A stretch of DNA of 64,000 nucleotides from Syntrophales bacterium (GTDB lineage Bacteria > Desulfobacterota > Syntrophia > Syntrophales > UBA2210), in the NCBI GenBank assembly GCA_963662405.2, contig CAXXKT010000001.1, positions 2,336,001 to 2,400,000 on the forward strand. The letters are read 5' to 3'. Shown piece by piece: positions 1 through 48,541 of the stretch (within the stretch, counting starts at the first letter, position 1; the number at the start of each line of letters is the position of its first letter). A program made the translations under genes and the position numbers. The notes beneath the pieces are model-generated. The model saw only the letters and a program-made list of their open reading frames with translations. It searched no databases and was not told the origin of the DNA.

Positions 1-107
1 TAATATCGCTGCCGGAAATATAATCCCGGTTACAATATAGGTTTTTTTCTTTTCTTCGGGAAGGAAGTTAATTGTTACCCGAAGTTTGCTGCGATAGGAG
101 ATTATTT

Positions 108-1466
108 ATGTTAGAAAAATATTATCCTTATGAAGAAGACCTTCCTATATCAAAATTACGTGTTGATGTAAAAAACCCGAGAATTCCAGAACAACAAGAT
201 AGTCAAATAGAATCTTTTCATTTGATGGCTAAAGTTCAGGAAGAAAAACTTATTGCCCTAGCAAAACATATTATCCAATATGGCTTAAATCCAGCTGAAA
301 AGTTCATTGTCATACCTGACGATGAAGATCAATACATCGTTCTCGATGGTAATAGACGCTTAACTACTTTACGAATATTAGAAACTCCAGAAATTGTCCA
401 AGGCCATCTGAAAGCTGATTACTCGCGGCAGCTAAAAAGACTGTCAGAAAAATATCTTAAGGATCCACTAATGGATGTACCTTGTCTTATTTTTCAGGAT
501 AGGGAGCAAGCGGATCCATGGATTGAGCTAATTCACGATGGCGAGAGTGGTGGCGCTGGACTTGTTAAATGGAGTGCGCAGCAGCGAAGTCGCTTCCAAT
601 CTAGAAAGGGTAAGAAGGCTTTACATCTCCAGGCTCTGGACTTTGTAATTGAAAATGGTGAATTAGAACCTGAAACAAAGACAAAGCTTGATCTTGGGAA
701 ATATCCCGCAAGTACTTTACAGCGGGTAATTGGGACCCCGTATGTTCGCGATAAACTAGGGATTGCTTCCGTAGATGGAGAACTTCGCACACACTTTCCT
801 AAAAAAGAACTACTAAAGGGTCTTACAAAACTCGTAGATGATATTGGCACTGGGAGGAAAAAAGTTGATGATTTCATGACACAAAAAAAGCGCATCGATT
901 ATATCAATGCACTTACTCCCGACGAGCTTCCAGATCCAATTTTTTTTAGCGATGAATTGATAGCTCTTGCAGATGCTCCTGAAAATGGGACCTTTGATAG
1001 TGAGAATGATAGAGAGAAGAAAAGCGATCGTTCTCACAGCTCCAGAAGAAAAAAGTTAATTCCCTCAAATCTTCACTTAAATATTACAGAAGTGAGATTA
1101 AATGATATCTATATTGAATTAAAAAGGCGCTTAATCATAGAAGAACATACAAACGCTATTGCTGTTTTGATACGTGCATTTTTGGAAATGAGTGTAGATG
1201 GATATATCGAGAGGAATAATATCACTATTAATGGAAAAGATACTCTGCAAAATAAAATAATGGCTACTTCAGACTATATGGAAAATAATAATATCCTAAA
1301 AAAGAATGACTTGAAACCCATAAGAAGAGCTGCCTCTAAGGAAACAGACGCAAGCTCGGCTACGTCTTTACACGGATATGTGCATAATCGTCGTATACGT
1401 CCTTTGCAAGACGATTTAAGGGCTACTTGGGATACACTGCAAATATTCTTTGAAAAGATTTGGTAA
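108..1466 (+). CDS. ParB/Srx-like N-terminal domain protein with HEPN-like C-terminus (PD-lambda-5 A-like defence protein)
   Basis: N-terminal NPR...YIVLDGNRR ParB-like motif; C-terminal AVLIRAFLE...LHGYVHN HEPN-like region. AGGAG RBS precedes ATG 108, so the start is later than the ORF track's 72. Confidence 0.7.
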   Translation: MLEKYYPYEEDLPISKLRVDVKNPRIPEQQDSQIESFHLMAKVQEEKLIALAKHIIQYGLNPAEKFIVIPDDEDQYIVLDGNRRLTTLRILETPEIVQGHLKADYSRQLKRLSEKYLKDPLMDVPCLIFQDREQADPWIELIHDGESGGAGLVKWSAQQRSRFQSRKGKKALHLQALDFVIENGELEPETKTKLDLGKYPASTLQRVIGTPYVRDKLGIASVDGELRTHFPKKELLKGLTKLVDDIGTGRKKVDDFMTQKKRIDYINALTPDELPDPIFFSDELIALADAPENGTFDSENDREKKSDRSHSSRRKKLIPSNLHLNITEVRLNDIYIELKRRLIIEEHTNAIAVLIRAFLEMSVDGYIERNNITINGKDTLQNKIMATSDYMENNNILKKNDLKPIRRAASKETDASSATSLHGYVHNRRIRPLQDDLRATWDTLQIFFEKIW

Positions 1467-1496: not shown

Positions 1497-2390
1497 ATGT
1501 TTATGTCGCATTTTCATTCTCCTTTACGATACCCGGGTGGTAAAAGAAAATTATCCAATTTTATTAAGCTAATTTTGAAAGAGAATAAACTCCTTGATGG
1601 TTACTATATTGAACCATATGCAGGTGGTTCAGCTGTTGCTTTATCCCTATTATTCAATGAATACGTCAGAAAAATCTATATCAACGACATTGATAAAAGT
1701 ATTTTTACCTTTTGGCATAACGTTTTAAATAATACGGATGCTTTATGTCAAAAGATTAAAGATACTGTAGTTTCTGTTGAAGAATGGAAACGACAAAAAA
1801 ATGTACAAAGCTCGGCAAATCCTGATCCGTTGGAATTAGCTTTTTCTACCTTCTTTTTGAACCGTACTAATCGATCTGGTATCATCTCTGGTGGTGTAAT
1901 TGGTGGGATAAACCAACAAGGCCGTTGGAAACTAGACGCGCGGTTTAATAAAAATGATCTTATAAAGAGAATCGAAAAGATTGGCAGATTTAAAGATAGA
2001 ATTGTTCTGTCAAATTATGATGCCGAATTTCTCTTGGAAAAAATATTGCCAAATTTGAATCAGCCATCTCTGATATATTTTGATCCACCATATTACGTTA
2101 AAGGAAAAGAAGCGTTGTATACTAATTTTTATATGGAATCAGATCATGCCCGTCTTGCTAATCGGATATGCAAGCTTACCTATCCTTGGATTATATCATA
2201 TGATAATGTAAAACCAATATTCAGTCTTTATAATCGATTTAGACATATTACTTACAGGTTAAATTATAGTGCTCAAAGTAGATATACTGGCAAGGAAATA
2301 ATGTTTTTTTCAGATAACCTAACTATACCAGAATTACCCGATCCAACAAGAATTAGCTCCAGGATATTTCAAGAAATTTATGCAGCATAA
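1497..2390 (+). CDS. D12-class (Dam-family) N6-adenine DNA methyltransferase
   Basis: SPLRYPGGK, EPYAGG (motif I) and FDPPYY (motif IV); 30 bp downstream of the previous gene. Confidence 0.92.
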   Translation: MFMSHFHSPLRYPGGKRKLSNFIKLILKENKLLDGYYIEPYAGGSAVALSLLFNEYVRKIYINDIDKSIFTFWHNVLNNTDALCQKIKDTVVSVEEWKRQKNVQSSANPDPLELAFSTFFLNRTNRSGIISGGVIGGINQQGRWKLDARFNKNDLIKRIEKIGRFKDRIVLSNYDAEFLLEKILPNLNQPSLIYFDPPYYVKGKEALYTNFYMESDHARLANRICKLTYPWIISYDNVKPIFSLYNRFRHITYRLNYSAQSRYTGKEIMFFSDNLTIPELPDPTRISSRIFQEIYAA

Positions 2391-2725: not shown

Positions 2726-4012
2726 GTGGAAGTGACTGACCGAGACAGGCGTATCTCAGATCAACTCGTAAGACTTGTCCAGATCGTGTTTGGTCTGGTA
2801 GTTGCGCAAAGTTTTCTGCTTCACCGAGATATTGTTTTGCACCCAGTTTCACCGAAGAACTTTCTCTCAGCCTTGGCCTTAGCCACTGTCTACATCACGA
2901 CTGTGCTTAGCTGGATCGATTGGCACGTCACCATGGAGCTTCGACCCTACAACTTCAATCCCAGAAATCACTATCGCATGACTGAACAGTTTCGCCTTGG
3001 ACTGGACCTTCTTGTTGTTACAGTCTATGCGTATTTACTCCTTGCTGTAGGCGATCTCAAGCCTTCACCATTGTCCACTACTACCCCACAAGAGGTATCA
3101 AACGGTGGAGTAGCTTCTTTTCTTATGGGATTCCCCGTTCTCTTCGTAACTTATCTACTTTCCGGACTCGCTCGACGGCGTGCTCACGGTCGGCTCGCGA
3201 CCAATCCCTTACCTATCCTTGTCTTCGGCTTGGCATACATAGCATTATTGATCGCTTATTATTTTCTGCGCCCTGCACTTGGTGCAGGGTTCGCCATGTG
3301 GATCGACTTCGGTGCCATTCTAACAGCTTTTGTCCTGATGCTCGCCTACCGTCTGACAAGACGCTGGCTGGTCAAAAAGCGGTCCCAGCAAAAGAAAGCT
3401 GGTCTCGTTGTGGGAATTGATGTCGATGGGGTACTTGCCGATCAAATTTACGGTGTGCTGCCACGTGTTGAAACGCGCCTTGGAATACGGCTCAGCTATG
3501 AAGATGTGACAGAGTGGAGACTTCCGTTAGGCAACTCCGATATTGCCAAGGAGATCTCAATAGCTCTCGAAGATCAGGAGTATGTCTTGGATATGCCCCT
3601 TCACAAGGACGCTCGTAACGTCGTCGATGCACTATACGTGAACAACCGTGTCGTGATGCTAACGGGTCGGTCACCTGTCACAAAAGCGTGGACAAACCAA
3701 TGGCTACAAAACGCAGCGTTTACCTTTGACGGGCTGATCACAGCCGAGGAGGAGAAGAAAAGTTTATATCGTTCGGATGTCTTAATTGACGACTATATTG
3801 GGAATATTCGAGAGTATCTCGAGAAAACGCATGGCGTAGCGATTCTTGTTGATCAACCTTGGAACCGAAGGGAAAGATCTGAACTCCAAGCTTGGATTGA
3901 TGCTGGGAGGCTCCACATCGTTGTCCAGCTTCGCGATGTCCTCCCAATTGTAAGGGAACTTCGCTTGAAACGAGAGAATGAGCAAAGAAGACCACAAAAT
4001 CAACATCCATAA
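2726..4012 (+). CDS. About six TM helices fused to a C-terminal HAD-family 5'(3')-deoxyribonucleotidase (NT5C-like) domain
   Basis: Six hydrophobic segments in aa ~14-210, then GIDVDGVLAD (HAD motif I), LTGR (II), K (III) and LIDD (IV). Confidence 0.8.
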   Translation: MEVTDRDRRISDQLVRLVQIVFGLVVAQSFLLHRDIVLHPVSPKNFLSALALATVYITTVLSWIDWHVTMELRPYNFNPRNHYRMTEQFRLGLDLLVVTVYAYLLLAVGDLKPSPLSTTTPQEVSNGGVASFLMGFPVLFVTYLLSGLARRRAHGRLATNPLPILVFGLAYIALLIAYYFLRPALGAGFAMWIDFGAILTAFVLMLAYRLTRRWLVKKRSQQKKAGLVVGIDVDGVLADQIYGVLPRVETRLGIRLSYEDVTEWRLPLGNSDIAKEISIALEDQEYVLDMPLHKDARNVVDALYVNNRVVMLTGRSPVTKAWTNQWLQNAAFTFDGLITAEEEKKSLYRSDVLIDDYIGNIREYLEKTHGVAILVDQPWNRRERSELQAWIDAGRLHIVVQLRDVLPIVRELRLKRENEQRRPQNQHP

Positions 4013-4028
4013 CTTGAAAGATAACTGA

Positions 4029-4625
4029 TTAATTTATTAAGTCGAGTTTTGCGGCTAGTAGTTTTATAGTATCTTTAGACCCGTGCTGTGCGCGAATGTA
4101 AAAAATTGTCGCAGCATCAGCTATCTCGTCGATCAGTAAAATGCGCTTGTATTTCATTGTGTTTTTTATATCAGCGTGACCGGCCAGATACTGGACCCGC
4201 CGAATAGGTATCCCTGCCTCGAGCAAATGCGTTATATAAGTGTGCCGGAGCGAGTGCAAGTTTATTGCCTCTCGGCAGCTTCGCCTTGGTTTGCAGTGTG
4301 AGGAAGGCTACGCTATGACCATTCGGGAGCAGTAAGGGCTCGTCCTCAGAGCCAAAAAAGTACCTTGCTTTTCTCTCAAGGAAGAGTTGCAAGAGACCGA
4401 CCAAATTCGTGTTGATCCCTACGATACGAAACTTTCCGCTTTTCGCTGAGAATTTGTTGGCGGCCGACGGCTGTATAGTAATAGTTCTCTTTTCTAGACC
4501 CACATCTTCAGTTTTCAGATAGACCCGTTCGCCACTGCGCATCCCCGTATAAAGATAGGTAGGCCATGATGAGGGGATATGCCTCCCCTCCGAAATGGCT
4601 GGTATTCTCCAGGGCGGTTTTAATA
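4029..4625 (-). pseudogene. Frameshifted 3' remnant of a tyrosine integrase closely related to 10635-11777
   Basis: HSLRHTYITHLL...VQYLAGHADIK and SGKFRIVGIN are split over frames; the DNA aligns with ~10680-11155 with small insertions near 4265 and 4555; no N-terminus. Confidence 0.9.
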
Positions 4626-4747
4626 CCAGCGAGAATTCCCCGTTGAATCTAACAACTCATTCAAGGCGACAGCTAATACAGAGGTGGTCCGGTTTCTTTG
4701 GACAGGTAACAGGGATTTATAAGTGGGAAGTTGCCCTGGGTTTGTGT

Positions 4748-5578
4748 TCATGCCGCAGCCTGTCCCTGTGGTAGTGATTCAAAATAAACCATAGCCGGTG
4801 TCTTTCTGTCAAAAGTATTGTGCCACCGTTTCTCGTTGTAGAACTGAAAATAGTCGGTAAGCCCCTTCTTCAACTCTTTCATTGAACCGTATGCCTTCAG
4901 ATAGATATCTTCGTACTTGACGCTCTTCCAGAGCCGTTCGATGAAGACATTGTCCATCCATCGCCCCTGACCGTCCATGCTGATAGAGATATCATGAGAG
5001 CGAAGGACATCGATGAATGCCTGTGAGGTAAACTGACTGCCCTGATCGGTATTGAAGATAGCCGGGCGCCCATACGTGGTGAGTGCTTCTTCAAGCGCAT
5101 CCACACAAAACGCACTGTCCAACGTATTCGACAACCGCCAGGAGAGGACCATCCGACTCGCCCAGTCCATAACGGCTACCAGATAACAGAACCCTCGTTC
5201 CATGGGAATATACGTGATATCGGCAGACCATACGTGGTTGGGACGGATGATATCAAGTCCCCGTAACAGATACGGATATATCGGGTGCTGGGGATGCTTT
5301 ATCGATAATCTCGGCTTGATGTACAACGCCTCGATCCCCATGCGACGCATCAACCGACGTACCTTATCACGTCCGATATCATACCCTCTCTGCCACAGCT
5401 CATTGCGAATCTTCCGACTCCCATAGAAGGGATACTGAAGATGAATCTCATCAATCTGACGCATCAGCTCCAGATCCTTCGCGCTGACCGGAACCGGAGA
5501 GTAATAAACACTCGATCGGGACAGCTCCAAGAGTTCGCATTGACGGGTTATGGGCACACTCTTTTCTCTCTTGATCAT
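4748..5578 (-). CDS. IS3 transposase OrfB (rve DDE)
   Basis: WSADITY, NTDQGSQF, DNVFIERLW. Confidence 0.95.
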   Translation of the reverse strand: MIKREKSVPITRQCELLELSRSSVYYSPVPVSAKDLELMRQIDEIHLQYPFYGSRKIRNELWQRGYDIGRDKVRRLMRRMGIEALYIKPRLSIKHPQHPIYPYLLRGLDIIRPNHVWSADITYIPMERGFCYLVAVMDWASRMVLSWRLSNTLDSAFCVDALEEALTTYGRPAIFNTDQGSQFTSQAFIDVLRSHDISISMDGQGRWMDNVFIERLWKSVKYEDIYLKAYGSMKELKKGLTDYFQFYNEKRWHNTFDRKTPAMVYFESLPQGQAAA

Positions 5579-5877
5579 CGCTTTGCGCTCGTTCCGTTGA
5601 TGCGACCGAGCGCATGTGATAAAAAATCATTCTCCATCGATAACTGTCCGATCTTGGCGTGAAGTTCTTTTACATCCGGACCCTGGTTGTCCTTATGACC
5701 CTTGCCAAATACGTCCGATGCGTGATCCATCAACTGCTTCTTCCATGTGGTGATCTGGTTCGGGTGTACCTGATACCGCTCGGCAAGCTCAACGATCGTC
5801 TGGTCCCCTTTCAGTGCCTCCAATGCCACCTTCGCCTTGAAGGACGGTGCATGGTTCCTCCGCGGTCTCTTGCTCAT
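5575..5877 (-). CDS. IS3 transposase OrfA (HTH)
   Basis: MSKRPRRNHAPSFKAKVALEAL...HPNQITTWKKQ; ATGA overlap with OrfB. Confidence 0.92.
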   Translation of the reverse strand: MSKRPRRNHAPSFKAKVALEALKGDQTIVELAERYQVHPNQITTWKKQLMDHASDVFGKGHKDNQGPDVKELHAKIGQLSMENDFLSHALGRINGTSAKR

Positions 5878-6045
5878 ATCTCTTTCCTCCTTACGTCCAC
5901 TATAGAGCAACTTTCCCACTTATGCACCTGTCCAAATTTGCCCGACCAGCTCTTACTACGCCTGAATTCGATCGTTGGCCTAAAAAATGCTTGACCATTT
6001 CTGTTTTTGACGGCTATACTACGGCTATACATTAGGGGTGGTCAA

Positions 6046-6630: not shown

Positions 6631-7023
6631 GTCGACCAAAAAATTATGCCGTAGCCGATAAGTGCCCAACCCCTCAATTTTATGTTATGAAAAGAAATGT
6701 ACAGTAAATTAGTCAAACGTGATTTTGTTGGTAGGAGGGAGAAATATCCTCACGAGCGACAATCATTTCAAACGTGACAGTGATGAAATACGTGTGTTTT
6801 GAGCATGGCAGGTGAAAGTCTCGACGAAAATTTCTTGACATGATACTATCATGAAGTTAATAGGTTAATGAAACATCTGTTTTATATCTGCTCGTGAATG
6901 ACTGTAAACACCGGGGGGATTATGGTCTGATCATCGAAGCCCTACTTCTCACGATGAGAGATAGGGCTTTTTCATGTACAGCTCCAACATTATCGGTTTA
7001 ACAAAGTTTTTTAGGAGGACAGT

Positions 7024-10168: not shown

Positions 10169-10634
10169 TTATTTCCTCCTGAGGTGAATAAAAAAGGGTA
10201 TACAAGCGCTTGGACCACTCGCGTGGACAGGCTTGTAAAAATTGCATCTATATTTACTAGCTTTCGAAGGTTTATTGTTGTTTTCGGTTAGTTATGACTT
10301 TAAAGTATTGGCGTTGATCGCATGGTTATCAGTTGAAGAAAACAAAAGCCCCATCTCCCATTTCGAGAAAAGGAGCTTTGTCTGATCGATCATAACAGTT
10401 CCAGAGGGTATCAATTCGCCAATACATATATTGATGTTCACTTGGTTGTTAAACCTCTAATCCCATTACAGTACTATGTCAAGAGAAATATAAACTGTGA
10501 TAACAGATACAGGATCTGTCAACGTATAGAGAAAAATAGTCCACTCGGCTTATAAAAATCAACACACCTTTAATTTACCCTTTACAGAGCCTAAAAGATG
10601 TTCCCCTGAAGCAGCCCTCGTTTTAACCGGACAC

Positions 10635-11777
10635 CTAGAAACTCAGGCGGTCTTCCGCTATCTCGTCACTCGGCAAAAGGTGTGCGTATTTCATCGTGGT
10701 TTTTATGTCGGCATGGCCAGCTAAGTACTGGACCCTCCGAATGGGCACTCCCGCATCAAGCAAGTGCGTTATGTATGTGTGCCGGAGCGAGTGCAAGGTT
10801 ATGTCATTCGGCAGTTTTGCCTTCTTGCGCAGTGCGAGAAAAGCTACGCTATGACCATTCGGGAGCAGCAAGGGTTCATTCTTAGTGCCGAAGAGGTACT
10901 TTGTTTTTCTCTCAACGAATAGCCGCAAGATATCGGTCAAATTCCTGTTGATTCCTATGATACGAAACTTTCCGCTTTTCGTTGAGAATTTGTCAGCGGC
11001 CGATGGCTGTACGGTAATAGCTCTCTTTCCCAGATCCACATCTCCCGTTTTCAGATAGACCAGTTCACCACGGCGCATCCCCGTATAAAGGTAGGTCATA
11101 ATGATGGGGTATGCCTCACCTCCGAAATGAGCAGTATCCTCCCGGGCGGTTTTAACGAGAACGGATATCTCTTCTTTGGTCAGAGAACGAGGTTTTCGTT
11201 CCCGCGTGTCACGGCGTAGCATTCGACTGTCTACGGTACGGGCCGGATTGGAGGGTAGGGCATTTTGCTCGACGGCGATATCCAGGATCTGAGACAAGGT
11301 CAGCAGGTCTGCCCGCACGGTCTTTCCCTTAACTGTCTTTAATCGTTCCCGCATGTATTTTTGAACGGTGGCCTCGGTAATTTCATTGACCGGTTTTGTG
11401 CCGAAATAGTTGGTCAGATTTTCTGCTCGGCGTGTGTTGAAATAGTGCATATAGTCACGGACGTTCTCGGCAGACCGGGCAAGGAAGGCCTTTTTCAACT
11501 CGTCCCAGTGAGGAAGGATTAGGGGTGTATCCGGACCGCCTAAAGCGCGGGCTTCTTCTCGTGAGATGAAACCTTTTCTCAAGGCGAAGCGAAGTTCCGA
11601 TGCGGTCAACGTGTCTTTCAGCGAATGAGTTTCGAGGACTTCTATGTCCGGATAGTCGGTGATCGCCTTGGCTTTCGAAGAGTAATACCTATACTTCTGT
11701 TCCTGAGTTCCGTCAGGGAAATAGACAATATACCGGATCTGGTAACCCCGGTTTTTATGGCGATAAAGCCGAGCCAT
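10635..11777 (-). CDS. int: Phage tyrosine integrase
   Basis: YTGMRRGE (R), K, HSLRH (HxxR), LAGHADIKTTMKY (H, Y). Confidence 0.95.
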   Translation of the reverse strand: MARLYRHKNRGYQIRYIVYFPDGTQEQKYRYYSSKAKAITDYPDIEVLETHSLKDTLTASELRFALRKGFISREEARALGGPDTPLILPHWDELKKAFLARSAENVRDYMHYFNTRRAENLTNYFGTKPVNEITEATVQKYMRERLKTVKGKTVRADLLTLSQILDIAVEQNALPSNPARTVDSRMLRRDTRERKPRSLTKEEISVLVKTAREDTAHFGGEAYPIIMTYLYTGMRRGELVYLKTGDVDLGKRAITVQPSAADKFSTKSGKFRIIGINRNLTDILRLFVERKTKYLFGTKNEPLLLPNGHSVAFLALRKKAKLPNDITLHSLRHTYITHLLDAGVPIRRVQYLAGHADIKTTMKYAHLLPSDEIAEDRLSF

Positions 11778-18893: not shown

Positions 18894-19325
18894 ATGGAAA
18901 TTAAAGCAAATAAAGAGAAATGCATAAGGCGAAACGTTTTTGTCCCGATCGATGTTGCCGCGTCATTTCAGGCGGGGTTTTTGGATGAGGATGTCTCCAG
19001 AACATGGATACTCGAGGCGATTCATGGAAGAGGACCCGTACTCTGTCCTGAATGTCGATGCGAGATTGAAGGAAAAGCGCTGCAGAGATTTTGGGAGGGG
19101 AAACGGGTGTGCTGTCGGCAATGCGGGAAGTTCTTTACAGCCCTCACGGGTTCCTTCCTGGCCGGGTGTCACATGACCTACAGCGAGGTCCTCCTTCTTG
19201 CCGTCTTTTTGCATTTCGGGATTTCCCCCCGGGAGATTGCCGGTATTTTGAGGATCAGCCCCGAGACGGTGAGGCTGTGGGATATCAAGTTCCGCGCCCT
19301 GGGAAAGATGAGGAAGATATCATGA
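18894..19325 (+). CDS. Zn-ribbon + HTH protein
   Basis: CPEC...CRQCGKFF and C-terminal PREIAGILRISPETVRLW. Confidence 0.75.
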   Translation: MEIKANKEKCIRRNVFVPIDVAASFQAGFLDEDVSRTWILEAIHGRGPVLCPECRCEIEGKALQRFWEGKRVCCRQCGKFFTALTGSFLAGCHMTYSEVLLLAVFLHFGISPREIAGILRISPETVRLWDIKFRALGKMRKIS

Positions 19326-20704
19326 GATTCACCACCATGAAACTGAGCGATCTGACAGCGGCAGACTACAACCCGCGTAAGGCATTGGGCAGCGGTGACC
19401 GGGAATACGAGAAGCTCCGCCGCTCGCTGGAAGAATTCGGCTGTGTGGATCCCCTGATCTGGAACGTGCGGACCGGGCGCCTCGTCGGCGGTCATCAGCG
19501 ATTGACCGTCATGCGGGACCTCGGCTGGACAGAGGCCGAAGTCTCCATTGTCGATCTTCCCGAAGAGAAGGAGAAAGCGCTCAATATCGCCCTCAACAAG
19601 ATCAGCGGCGAATGGGATCTCGACCGGCTCCGCGATCTGCTTGTCGAACTCGAGGCCGTGGAGATCGACGTCAGCCTCACCGGGTTCGATACGGAAGAGA
19701 TCGCGGAGATCATGCCGAGGGCGGAGGAGGCCGAGCTGCGGGAAGACGGGTTCGATGCCGAAACCGAGGTCTCGAAGATCACCGAACCGTTCACGCAACC
19801 GGGGGACCTCTACCTCCTGGGGCGGCACCGCCTCCTCTGCGGCGACAGCAGCGACGCCGGCGCGATGGCCATTCTGATGGAAGGACGTCTCGCCGATCTG
19901 GTCTGGACGGATCCCCCCTACAACGTCGACTATCACAACGACCGCGGGGAGGGCATTGAGAACGACAACCTTCCCCCGGCACTGTTCCGGGAGATGATCA
20001 CAGCCGCTTTCCGCAACATCTACACCCACACCCGGGAGGGCGGCTGCTTTTACGTCTCCCATTCCGACATCGGGGGGTTGGCCTTCCGGAGCGCCGTCAT
20101 CGAGGCGGGCTTCCTCCTCAAGCAGTGCCTGATCTGGGTCAAGAACGGCGCCGTTCTCGGCCGGCAGGACTACAACTGGAAGCACGAGCCCATCCTGTAC
20201 GGATGGAAGCCGGGGCGGACCCATTACTTCTGCATGGACTACTCACTGACGACCGTGATCGACGAGGAGGCGGACATCTCCCGGATGAAACGCGCGGAGC
20301 TCGTGGAACTGGTGAAGGAGATGCGGCGATGCGAGGCCGCCACCGTTCTGCGAGAGGACCGCCAATCCCGGAACCCCCTCCATCCCACGCAGAAACCCGT
20401 TCCCCTGGTGGGCAGGATGATCCGGAACAGCACGCCGAACAGCCCTGACATACTCGTCCTGGACGGGTTCGGCGGATCCGGAACGACCCTGATGGCGTGC
20501 GAGCAGATGGGACGTGTCTGCAACACGATGGAGAAGACACCCGTCTACTGCGACGTGATAGTGAAGCGGTGGGAACGGTTCACCGGGGAAAAGGCGGAAC
20601 TGGTACGCAACTCGGAAGGCCGTACGTCGATCTGTTCGGGTTTATTAAGTCCCGAAGAATGCAACCCTGAGAGGAGGTGCGATCCGATTACCATATCAAG
20701 ATGA
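19322..20704 (+). CDS. ParB-domain N4/N6 DNA methyltransferase (phage type)
   Basis: YNPR...GGHQRL; TDPPYN; HPTQKP; LDGFGGSGTT. ATG 19322 overlaps the upstream stop. Confidence 0.92.
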   Translation: MRFTTMKLSDLTAADYNPRKALGSGDREYEKLRRSLEEFGCVDPLIWNVRTGRLVGGHQRLTVMRDLGWTEAEVSIVDLPEEKEKALNIALNKISGEWDLDRLRDLLVELEAVEIDVSLTGFDTEEIAEIMPRAEEAELREDGFDAETEVSKITEPFTQPGDLYLLGRHRLLCGDSSDAGAMAILMEGRLADLVWTDPPYNVDYHNDRGEGIENDNLPPALFREMITAAFRNIYTHTREGGCFYVSHSDIGGLAFRSAVIEAGFLLKQCLIWVKNGAVLGRQDYNWKHEPILYGWKPGRTHYFCMDYSLTTVIDEEADISRMKRAELVELVKEMRRCEAATVLREDRQSRNPLHPTQKPVPLVGRMIRNSTPNSPDILVLDGFGGSGTTLMACEQMGRVCNTMEKTPVYCDVIVKRWERFTGEKAELVRNSEGRTSICSGLLSPEECNPERRCDPITISR

Positions 20705-42464: not shown

Positions 42465-42511
42465 GACTCATATCCGTAGTGTCCGGGGTTCAATTCCCTG
42501 CACCGCCACCA
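42465..42511 (+). other. attR: 3' half of tRNA-Met(CAT), not a complete tRNA
   Basis: CTCATAT anticodon loop, GGTTCAATTCC T-arm and CACCGCCACCA end; D-arm and 5' acceptor strand are absent. Confidence 0.88.
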
Positions 42512-42518
42512 TGAATAT

Positions 42519-47195: not shown

Positions 47196-47267
47196 CTATC
47201 GATCATTTTTCGGGCACCAATTACATAAAATATACACGTAACACCTTGTATTGTCAAGATAAATGAC

Positions 47268-48541
47268 AGAGGTGGTCCGGTTTCTTTGGACAGGTAACAG
47301 GGATTTATAAGTGGGAAGTTGCCCTGGGTTTGTGTTCATGCCGCAGCCTGTCCCTGTGGTAGTGATTCAAAATAAACCATAGCCGGTGTCTTTCTGTCAA
47401 AAGTATTGTGCCACCGTTTCTCGTTGTAGAACTGAAAATAGTCGGTAAGCCCCTTCTTCAACTCTTTCATTGAACCGTATGCCTTCAGATAGATATCTTC
47501 GTACTTGACGCTCTTCCAGAGCCGTTCGATGAAGACATTGTCCATCCATCGTCCCTGACCGTCCATGCTGATAGAGATATCATGAGAGCGAAGGACATCG
47601 ATGAATGCCTGTGAGGTAAACTGACTGCCCTGATCGGTATTGAAGATAGCCGGGCGCCCATACGTGGTGAGTGCTTCTTCAAGCGCATCCACACAAAACG
47701 CACTGTCCAACGTATTCGACAACCGCCAGGAGAGGACCATCCGACTCGCCCAGTCCATAACGGCTACCAGATAACAGAACCCTCGTTCCATGGGAATATA
47801 CGTGATATCGGCAGACCATACGTGGTTGGGACGGATGATATCAAGTCCCCGTAACAGATACGGATATATCGGGTGCTGGGGATGCTTTATCGATAATCTC
47901 GGCTTGATGTGCAACGCCTCGATCCCCATGCGACGCATCAACCGACGTACCTTATCACGTCCGATATCATACCCTCTCTGCCACAGCTCATTGCGAATCT
48001 TCCGACTCCCATAGAAGGGATACTGAAGATGAATCTCATCAATCTGACGCATCAGCTCCAGATCCTTCGCGCTGACCGGAACCGGAGAGTAATAAACACT
48101 CGATCGGGACAGCTCCAAGAGTTCGCATTGACGGGTTATGGGCACACTCTTTTCTCTCTTGATCATCGCTTTGCGCTCGTTCCGTTGATGCGACCGAGCG
48201 CATGTGATAAAAAATCATTCTCCATCGATAACTGTCCGATCTTGGCGTGAAGTTCTTTTACATCCGGACCCTGGTTGTCCTTATGACCCTTGCCAAATAC
48301 GTCCGATGCGTGATCCATCAACTGCTTCTTCCATGTGGTGATCTGGTTCGGGTGTACCTGATACCGCTCGGCAAGCTCAACGATCGTCTGGTCCCCTTTC
48401 AGTGCCTCCAATGCCACCTTCGCCTTGAAGGACGGTGCATGGTTCCTCCGCGGTCTCTTGCTCATATCTCTTTCCTCCTTACGTCCACTATAGAGCAACT
48501 TTCCCACTTATGCACCTGTCCAAATTTGCCCGACCAGCTCT
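47268..48541 (-). mobile_element. IS3-family insertion sequence, copy 2 (OrfB 47336-48166, OrfA 48163-48465)
   Basis: Near-identical to 4680-5953; flanks GAC/GCT show no target duplication. Confidence 0.93.

Follow-up and report, generated by a model that had tools for sequence, protein, structure and literature searches.

The gene considered here lies near the beginning of a 64,000-nucleotide stretch of the genome of a Syntrophales bacterium (hereafter the window), as an intact open reading frame on the forward strand at 2726..4012. When read from a GTG at 2726 it encodes 428 amino acids; the corresponding database protein (P0002, 426 amino acids) begins at a second GTG at 2732, which is preceded 7 nt upstream by AGGGA and is probably the true start (residue numbers follow P0002). 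A six-helix membrane domain (2732..3400) is fused to a HAD phosphatase of the NT5C type (Pfam PF06941; 3407..3916), with its DxD motif at 3419-3427, its threonine at 3662-3664, its lysine at 3758-3760 and its DD motif at 3788-3793. A search for a promoter consensus found none.

Upstream on the same strand lie the two genes of PD-Lambda-5, a known defense system that is a neighbor rather than part of the finding: PD-Lambda-5 A (72..1466) and PD-Lambda-5 B (1497..2390), a D12-class N6-adenine methyltransferase with a DPPY motif and the nearest methylase to the fusion gene in the source genome (PADLOC E-values 6e-133 and 4e-122). Downstream are a broken tyrosine integrase on the reverse strand (4029..4623; 81% DNA identity to an intact integrase at 10635-11777), an insertion sequence copy and MazEF. 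The placement of the gene between a defense pair and an integrase remnant, as given in the original prediction, is thus correct. The possibility that the fusion gene is a third PD-Lambda-5 subunit was rejected: a 340-bp gap separates it from the pair, its GC content is 49% versus 33-38% for PD-Lambda-5, and no PD-Lambda-5 match was found among 109 neighboring ORFs scanned at the loci of its relatives.

A tRNA-Met gene lies about 350-430 bp ahead of the window start (G000:C1:2335572-2335648), and a 48-bp exact repeat of its 3' end, some 43 kb away at 42467..42514 (forward strand), is probably the att site at the boundary of the element in which the fusion gene lies. The element holds PD-Lambda-5, the fusion gene, the broken integrase, the insertion sequence, MazEF, HD-GYP and histidine-kinase genes and a prophage, and is likely a tandem integration hotspot. 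The insertion sequence (window 4680-5953 and 47266-48541) has at least 13 copies in the genome at 95-100% identity and was therefore recently active. An intergenic repeat of about 160 bp (6813-6972) has dozens of copies genome-wide at 70-85% identity, including copies immediately ahead of the window and near 10335-10395; a riboswitch, a MITE or a promoter element are candidates for it.

The two domains of the fusion protein

Six hydropathy peaks (residues 12-30, 44-62, 89-107, 125-143, 160-179 and 187-205) follow a positive-inside pattern, with a basic N-terminus, loops 2 and 4 and C-terminus that are therefore assigned to the cytoplasm. A full-length AlphaFold2 model built from an 85-sequence alignment (pLDDT 94.9) places helices at 3-30, 44-70, 82-107, 128-152, 159-183 and 185-223, the sixth running continuously into the HAD domain; the membrane domain modeled alone reaches pLDDT 94.8. 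Among 48,161 chains the best structural match of the membrane model is the TMEM175 channel CmTMEM175 (5vre: Z 14.8, rmsd 3.2, 171/188 aligned), followed by a designed protein at Z 11.8 and natural proteins below 10, and in a further structure comparison of this domain human TMEM175 ranks 2-3; helical bundles can reach Z of about 13-14 without kinship, so that the fold match is good but not certain. Foldseek gave weak TMEM175 matches (E 0.38-0.69), and against the PDB and BFVD it returned no match at E 0.001. In the ESM Atlas the membrane part falls among unnamed clusters only, and the whole protein probably in the family's own cluster; the Atlas also holds many unnamed clusters of 200-250 amino acids scoring 0.93-0.94, a hint of a wider unnamed superfamily.

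At the sequence level, aligning profiles with 28 TMEM175 proteins yields a marginal match (hhalign probability 1.4%, P 0.015). In its low-confidence register, L22 is paired with the TMEM175 gate residue, and W61/H65 with the conserved Trp/His, residues whose roles are described in PMC7176437, and the helix register guessed in the original prediction is recovered, IVFGLVV aligning with GVFAIAI and W..WH with W..HH. The TMEM175 signature, as described there, combines an Arg...FSD motif with a selectivity threonine in helix 1. In the same low-confidence register, the window protein has L15-V16-Q17 in place of FSD (22/58 family members keep the equivalent Asp), and A25 in place of the threonine, that column holding A in 70, G in 14 and T in 1 of 85 sequences. 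No PF06736 match to the window protein was found at E 0.1, nor any in the source genome. The suggested likeness to TMEM175 is thus supported by structure, is marginal by sequence profile, and fails for the FSD/Thr signature. Because of the replacements by LVQ and Ala, filing the domain as a TMEM175 member was rejected, and the same replacements suggest that the pore may be unselective.

A model of four copies of the membrane domain, tetramer being the only stoichiometry tried, scored 0.82 against 0.00 for the best control, although this may reflect memory of TMEM175; the score mark is reached by 20/30 solved homodimers and 1/23 monomers. At least 94% of contacts are shared between runs, and pLDDT is at least 78. 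Helix 1 (2738..2821) is predicted to line the axis, and I18 and L22 touch the diagonal subunit in the model, making them a candidate hydrophobic gate. An oligomer model and a Foldseek search had both been suggested in the original prediction: the first predicts a helix-1-lined tetramer, and the second gives weak TMEM175 matches. The TMEM175-like fold, the tetramer and the I18/L22 gate are all predicted features.

A putative cytoplasmic cluster of conserved residues begins with S60-W61-x-D63-W64-H65 to P72-Y73 (2909..2950) and continues with R88, D92, Y141, G145, R148, R207 and R210. Y73, R88, D92, Y141, G145 and R207 are kept in 55-58 of 58 diverse rows, split and membrane-only proteins included. 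Helices 4-6 are reported to be poorly conserved in TMEM175 (PMC7176437); in the present family F138, Y141, G145 and R207 reach at least 85% there, versus one conserved residue in the 28 TMEM175 proteins. The conserved Arg, Tyr and Asp residues are cytoplasmic, and most are absent from the list of modeled subunit-interface residues. Their conservation and position suggest a putative nucleotide pocket where helices 2-4 and 6 end on the cytoplasmic side.

The HAD domain matches PF06941 at E 7e-11 (42.7 bits versus a cutoff of 24.8), the only family scoring on this portion; PF13419 was not matched, and in a PDB sequence search with the window protein only the HAD part found matches. Its motifs D230-x-D232, T311, K343 and D353-D354 are present in 85/85 aligned homologs (position 311 being T in 84 and S in one), so the domain is never degenerate among them, and W262 of the cap is found in 98% of membrane-linked homologs. 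The architecture first proposed, about six transmembrane helices followed by an NT5C-like HAD domain with all four motifs, is accordingly upheld. It had also been proposed that this domain either senses or clears a mononucleotide. Clearing is the more likely of the two, and sensing less so, because the catalytic residues are invariant, because the HAD often has a gene of its own, located upstream or downstream of the membrane gene or on the opposite strand, and because the membrane domain retains its cytoplasmic Arg/Tyr/Asp cluster even where no HAD is present.

Distribution and architectures of the family

A protein search gave 111 matches, most covering at least 90% of the query, and the fusion is for that reason not a chance event; a second search gave 103 clusters at E 1e-30. 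The family of membrane domain plus HAD is rare and scattered across bacteria and archaea, with carriers in the Actinomycetota, Chloroflexota, Nitrospirota, Planctomycetota, Verrucomicrobiota, Spirochaetota, Desulfobacteraceae and several archaea. In 400 other genomes of the source phylum the membrane domain had no match, all other matches being to the HAD region; 400 genomes of the class Thermoleophilia yielded no new membrane-bearing locus, and tblastn against 72,556 plasmids and 50,697 phages found no match. In IMG/VR the fusion was found on one contig (L081) of 25 loci.

The 186 loci comprise 57 with a fusion, 29 with split genes, 10 with the membrane domain only (some of these truncated at contig ends), 89 with the HAD only and one with neither domain. 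Fusion is therefore the commonest coupled form (57/86). The two domains are also found as adjacent genes in either order, which is new here: true two-gene forms include membrane-HAD, HAD-membrane, and HAD-deaminase with a convergent membrane gene, while the split loci L010, L127 and L130 may be frameshifts. Fusions of the membrane domain of 470-2000 amino acids were sought and none was found, which is weak evidence, since members of 509-632 amino acids occur in the cluster set. Longer members with extra hydrophobic or unannotated segments at either terminus are P0158, P0185, P0190, P0195, L164:729-3011 and L177:3184-5001. A second, distant homolog of the membrane domain (L106:3841-4671, E 4e-7) directly follows a fusion gene, and a divergent fusion in a Bathyarchaeia genome (L031:7335-13204) lies between two genes that we take to be Cas1-like, in a setting that would be casposon-like. 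For membrane-only homologs, no HAD match was found in 5/5 genomes searched, and 0/4 such loci have a methylase within 3 kb; one of the five genomes, G464 (locus L039), is flagged as unpublished and contributes a single row.

HAD-only relatives occur in other settings. Close relatives in non-defense surroundings are L361-L363, and L013, which lies with a cytosine/purine (NCS1) permease and a deaminase. A sister stand-alone HAD is widespread in the Methanotrichaceae (HAD-only loci L022-L080), all 56 having Ala in place of the cap Trp; in the quick tree that serves as the family phylogeny it nests among archaeal split forms, and it was perhaps domesticated from a system of membrane domain plus HAD.

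Neighboring methyltransferases and cytidine deaminases

The defense-island context that had been suggested is supported: PADLOC matches lie near 22/36 loci with both domains, 16 of these with methyltransferases (109 of 398 neighbor ORFs at 40 loci were scanned). Several loci, namely L008, L012, L020, L162, L165 and L179, have housekeeping-like neighbors. Pfam searches of 123 further neighbor proteins turned up additional methylases and cytidine deaminases. Inspection of 27 candidate methylases found SPP[YF] motifs in 15, D/NPP in 7 and no motif in 5. SPPY marks most bacterial N4-cytosine methyltransferases, as a rule with exceptions (PMC8885841).

Within 5 kb, 16/26 loci have a DNA methyltransferase and 12/26 one of the SPP[YF] type, versus 4/21 and 0/21 for matched SIR2/CBASS controls, and within 3 kb the counts are 14/31 and 11/31 versus 3/24 and 0/24, with nominal Fisher p-values of 4e-4 and 1e-3 that are overstated by kinship. 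For these counts, which used local profiles, the window locus itself, loci with short flanks and near-duplicates (L016, L021, L111, L114, L117, L119, L122, L132, L136, L148, L156, L167, L176, L181 and L182) were dropped. At ±6 kb, 8 of 49 control loci (two lineages only, and including 20 actinobacterial SIR2 loci whose defense-island status is assumed) have a methyltransferase, and in none is it of the SPP type. A profile built only from methyltransferases outside the test set recovered the SPP enzyme in 18/18 test loci checked. Near stand-alone HAD relatives a methylase was found in 0/37, 0/16 and 0/24 cases, and at random sites of the source genome in 2%. Clustering of the SPP enzymes gives 8 groups less than 35% identical to one another, and these are spread over the quick tree; the largest comprises 10/19 enzymes and includes L139, which matches the N4-cytosine methyltransferase M.PvuII at E 2.5e-97. 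SPP enzymes are common in PF01555 (19/30 loci). Ten of the 26 loci have no methyltransferase within 5 kb, and L001, a close relative of the window gene, adjoins a C5 methyltransferase. The genome-wide presence of SPP methyltransferases was discarded as uninformative, at 5/6 carriers without an adjacent SPP enzyme versus at least 13/25 phylum genomes. The source genome has three SPPY methyltransferases, all in prophage copies: these near-identical copies (G000:C1:259738-261009, 1966465-1967736 and 2660564-2661835) have the SPPY (m4C-type) methylase near a WTDPPY methylase, and a related prophage in the window (19070-20701) has the WTDPPY enzyme only.

A tetrameric cytidine deaminase lies within 1 kb in 7/76 loci, all seven in one clade and therefore representing one event. 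Cytidine deaminases are described as converting N4-methylcytidine to uridine (PMC9897663).

Several neighboring gene groups are of interest in their own right. A PvuII-like m4C methylase is grouped with an MzaB-like GHKL ATPase at L011:12992-18202, L021:13981-19197 and L139:5782-8917, the first two adding an unannotated protein of 760 amino acids; this is possibly an undescribed defense system. A recurring unannotated protein of 750-780 amino acids and a PvuII-like methylase lie directly upstream of the fusion gene at L112:832-4764, L117:848-4771 and L007:5859-9633, with a 221-amino-acid gene in the L112 and L117 groups. At L183:4955-11138 a HAD and a cytidine deaminase occur with no membrane gene detected, possibly as a base-modification cluster; the ORFs beside them presumably resemble HerA, thymidylate synthase and two uracil-DNA glycosylases.

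Proposed function and relation to known systems

We rather favor the view that the fusion is a single-gene, abortive anti-phage system resembling the Metis systems discussed below. That its ligand is a methylated cytosine nucleotide is proposed at somewhat short of even confidence, because three features point to cytosine: the NT5C-type HAD, the N4-cytosine methylases and the cytidine deaminase. Counting against an m4C reading, the neighbor of the fusion gene itself is an m6A (DPPY) enzyme, and the ligand may vary within the family, since L001 adjoins a C5 enzyme. The links to N4-cytosine methyltransferases, to cytidine deaminase and to the type II Metis precedent were absent from the original prediction.

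The proposed sequence of events would begin with degradation of the host chromosome by a phage, whose nucleases would release a methylated deoxynucleotide, most likely N4-methyl-dCMP (m4dCMP). In uninfected cells the fused phosphatase would remove the small amounts of ligand arising from normal DNA repair and so prevent false alarms; during infection it would be swamped by m4dCMP, which would bind the cytoplasmic face of the tetramer, causing helix 1 to rotate and the pore to open. Membrane depolarization or dormancy would follow, aborting the infection and killing the infected cell. Where a deaminase is present, it and the HAD could form a two-step disposal route from m4dCMP through m4dC to dU. 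We infer every step of this mechanism beyond the genomic associations.

Two other explanations seem to us improbable to a similar degree. In one, the protein is a non-lethal accessory of restriction-modification, in which the HAD dephosphorylates methylated dCMP and blocks its recycling into DNA (sanitation or salvage), while the membrane domain lets the nucleoside out or signals its presence, or the cytidine deaminase acts on it, possibly also denying phages a methylated precursor. This would account equally well for the links to m4C methyltransferases and the deaminase, and it fits both the close HAD-only relative beside the NCS1 permease and deaminase and the housekeeping-like neighbors at several loci. 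However, the family is rare and patchy, without another membrane match in the 400 genomes of the same phylum, its members are found on mobile elements and in islands, and most m4C-methylating genomes do without it; moreover, the modeled TMEM175-like axis lined by I18 and L22 would look more like a narrow gate for ions than like a passage for nucleosides.

In the other, which follows the original prediction, the protein is a defense channel gated differently: the HAD would sense a build-up of ordinary dNMPs (or a phage protein) and open the pore, the methylases being mere island neighbors. The prevalence of fusion among coupled loci (57/86), the continuity of helix 6 into the HAD domain and the lack of a methylase at 10/26 loci speak for such a sensor, but split, convergent and membrane-only members occur, the HAD never degenerates, and the SPP-type enzymes (12/26 loci versus 0/49 controls) and the deaminase would go unexplained. 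An ordinary cation channel from a divergent TMEM175 branch joined to an unrelated housekeeping nucleotidase, as uncoupled island cargo, would fit the membrane-only and HAD-only members and is nonetheless very improbable, as the two genes remain coupled in both bacteria and archaea despite fission, reordering and inversion, and other residues occupy the positions of FSD and the selectivity Thr.

Returning to the methylcytosine-sensing, abortive channel, its most specific form is a TMEM175-fold channel gated by N4-methyl-dCMP, a methylcytosine counterpart of Metis evolved independently from a different fold, with its own eraser, and acting as a fail-safe for m4C restriction-modification in bacteria and archaea; we put this forward tentatively, as a conjecture worth pursuing. 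If true, the channel fold of the Parkinson-linked lysosomal protein TMEM175 would gain its first nucleotide-gated, immune member and with it a ligand-gated, immune role, and modified-nucleotide sensing would extend to archaea. The published Metis work describes bacteria as detecting genome destruction through m6dAMP and leaves methylated cytosine as a question, and its authors expect methylcytosine-sensing types and types beside their own methylase (10.1101/2025.11.05.686725); such a counterpart is thus anticipated in print, and none was found in the literature searched. With a single cloneable gene, a candidate ligand, a matching PvuII-like methylase type and a disposal route, the family makes the methylcytosine question testable in E. 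coli.

In line with the original prediction, the fusion was not matched to a named system. The 5027 PADLOC models gave no match for the window protein, and, when applied to 15 domains and homologs, none for 14 and one weak KwaA match (E 0.004) in the extra C-terminal region of L164; NCBIfam gave nothing meaningful for the window protein. Literature searches, with most subscription journals outside their scope, found no paper since 2018 joining TMEM175, phage and defense system, and no NT5C-membrane or m4dCMP-sensing system; the accessible part of the DefensePredictor report lists a calcineurin-HAD pair only.

Compared with known proteins, the HAD domain resembles the NT5C 5'(3')-deoxyribonucleotidases (3BWV, human cdN/mdN) in fold (Z 19.5, rmsd 2.2, 164 residues aligned to 3BWV), in having all the catalytic motifs, and in belonging to a Pfam family annotated as pyrimidine deoxynucleotidase, but it is membrane-tethered, only 21% identical, and bears its own cap signature (Q238, W262, R313, PWN). 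With the TMEM175 K+ channels (PF06736; 5VRE, 6HD8, 6WC9) the membrane domain would share the six-helix fold, the predicted helix-1-lined tetramer, the hydrophobic gate position and the Trp/His pair where helix 2 meets the cytoplasm. It differs from them in its 10% identity, the lack of a Pfam match and of FSD, the replacement of the selectivity Thr by Ala/Gly, the Arg/Tyr cluster in helices 4-6, the fused nucleotidase and the island context.

Among defense systems, PUA-Cal-HAD or type I Metis (bioRxiv 10.64898/2026.01.15.699771) would be alike in its methylated-dNMP danger signal, has a HAD partner as well, and is described as differing in its soluble PUA-calcineurin effector, which is Dam-dependent and Dcm-independent. 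The closer precedent is type II Metis (MisC plus MisB; Osterman et al., bioRxiv 10.1101/2025.11.05.686725; Science 2026 according to PMC13728456), in which, as reported, a membrane effector binds m6dAMP and a HAD removes basal m6dAMP and is dispensable for defense. The two share a membrane effector (a putative one in the window protein) with a catalytically intact HAD and an association with DNA methylases (in Metis a putative type III, described for MisA), and they would share the logic whereby a methylated mononucleotide from the degraded host genome is sensed while the HAD clears basal ligand. MisC is described as having three transmembrane helices, an octamer model and m6dAMP as its ligand, and MisB as belonging to PF13419. 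By that published description the six helices of the window protein set it apart from MisC, and filing the gene as a Metis member was rejected on its six rather than three helices and on PF06941 rather than PF13419. Unlike Metis, the family of the window gene combines six helices, a TMEM175-like tetramer model and a PF06941 NT5C-type HAD that is usually fused, and it is linked mainly to N4-cytosine methyltransferases and, in one clade, to a cytidine deaminase.
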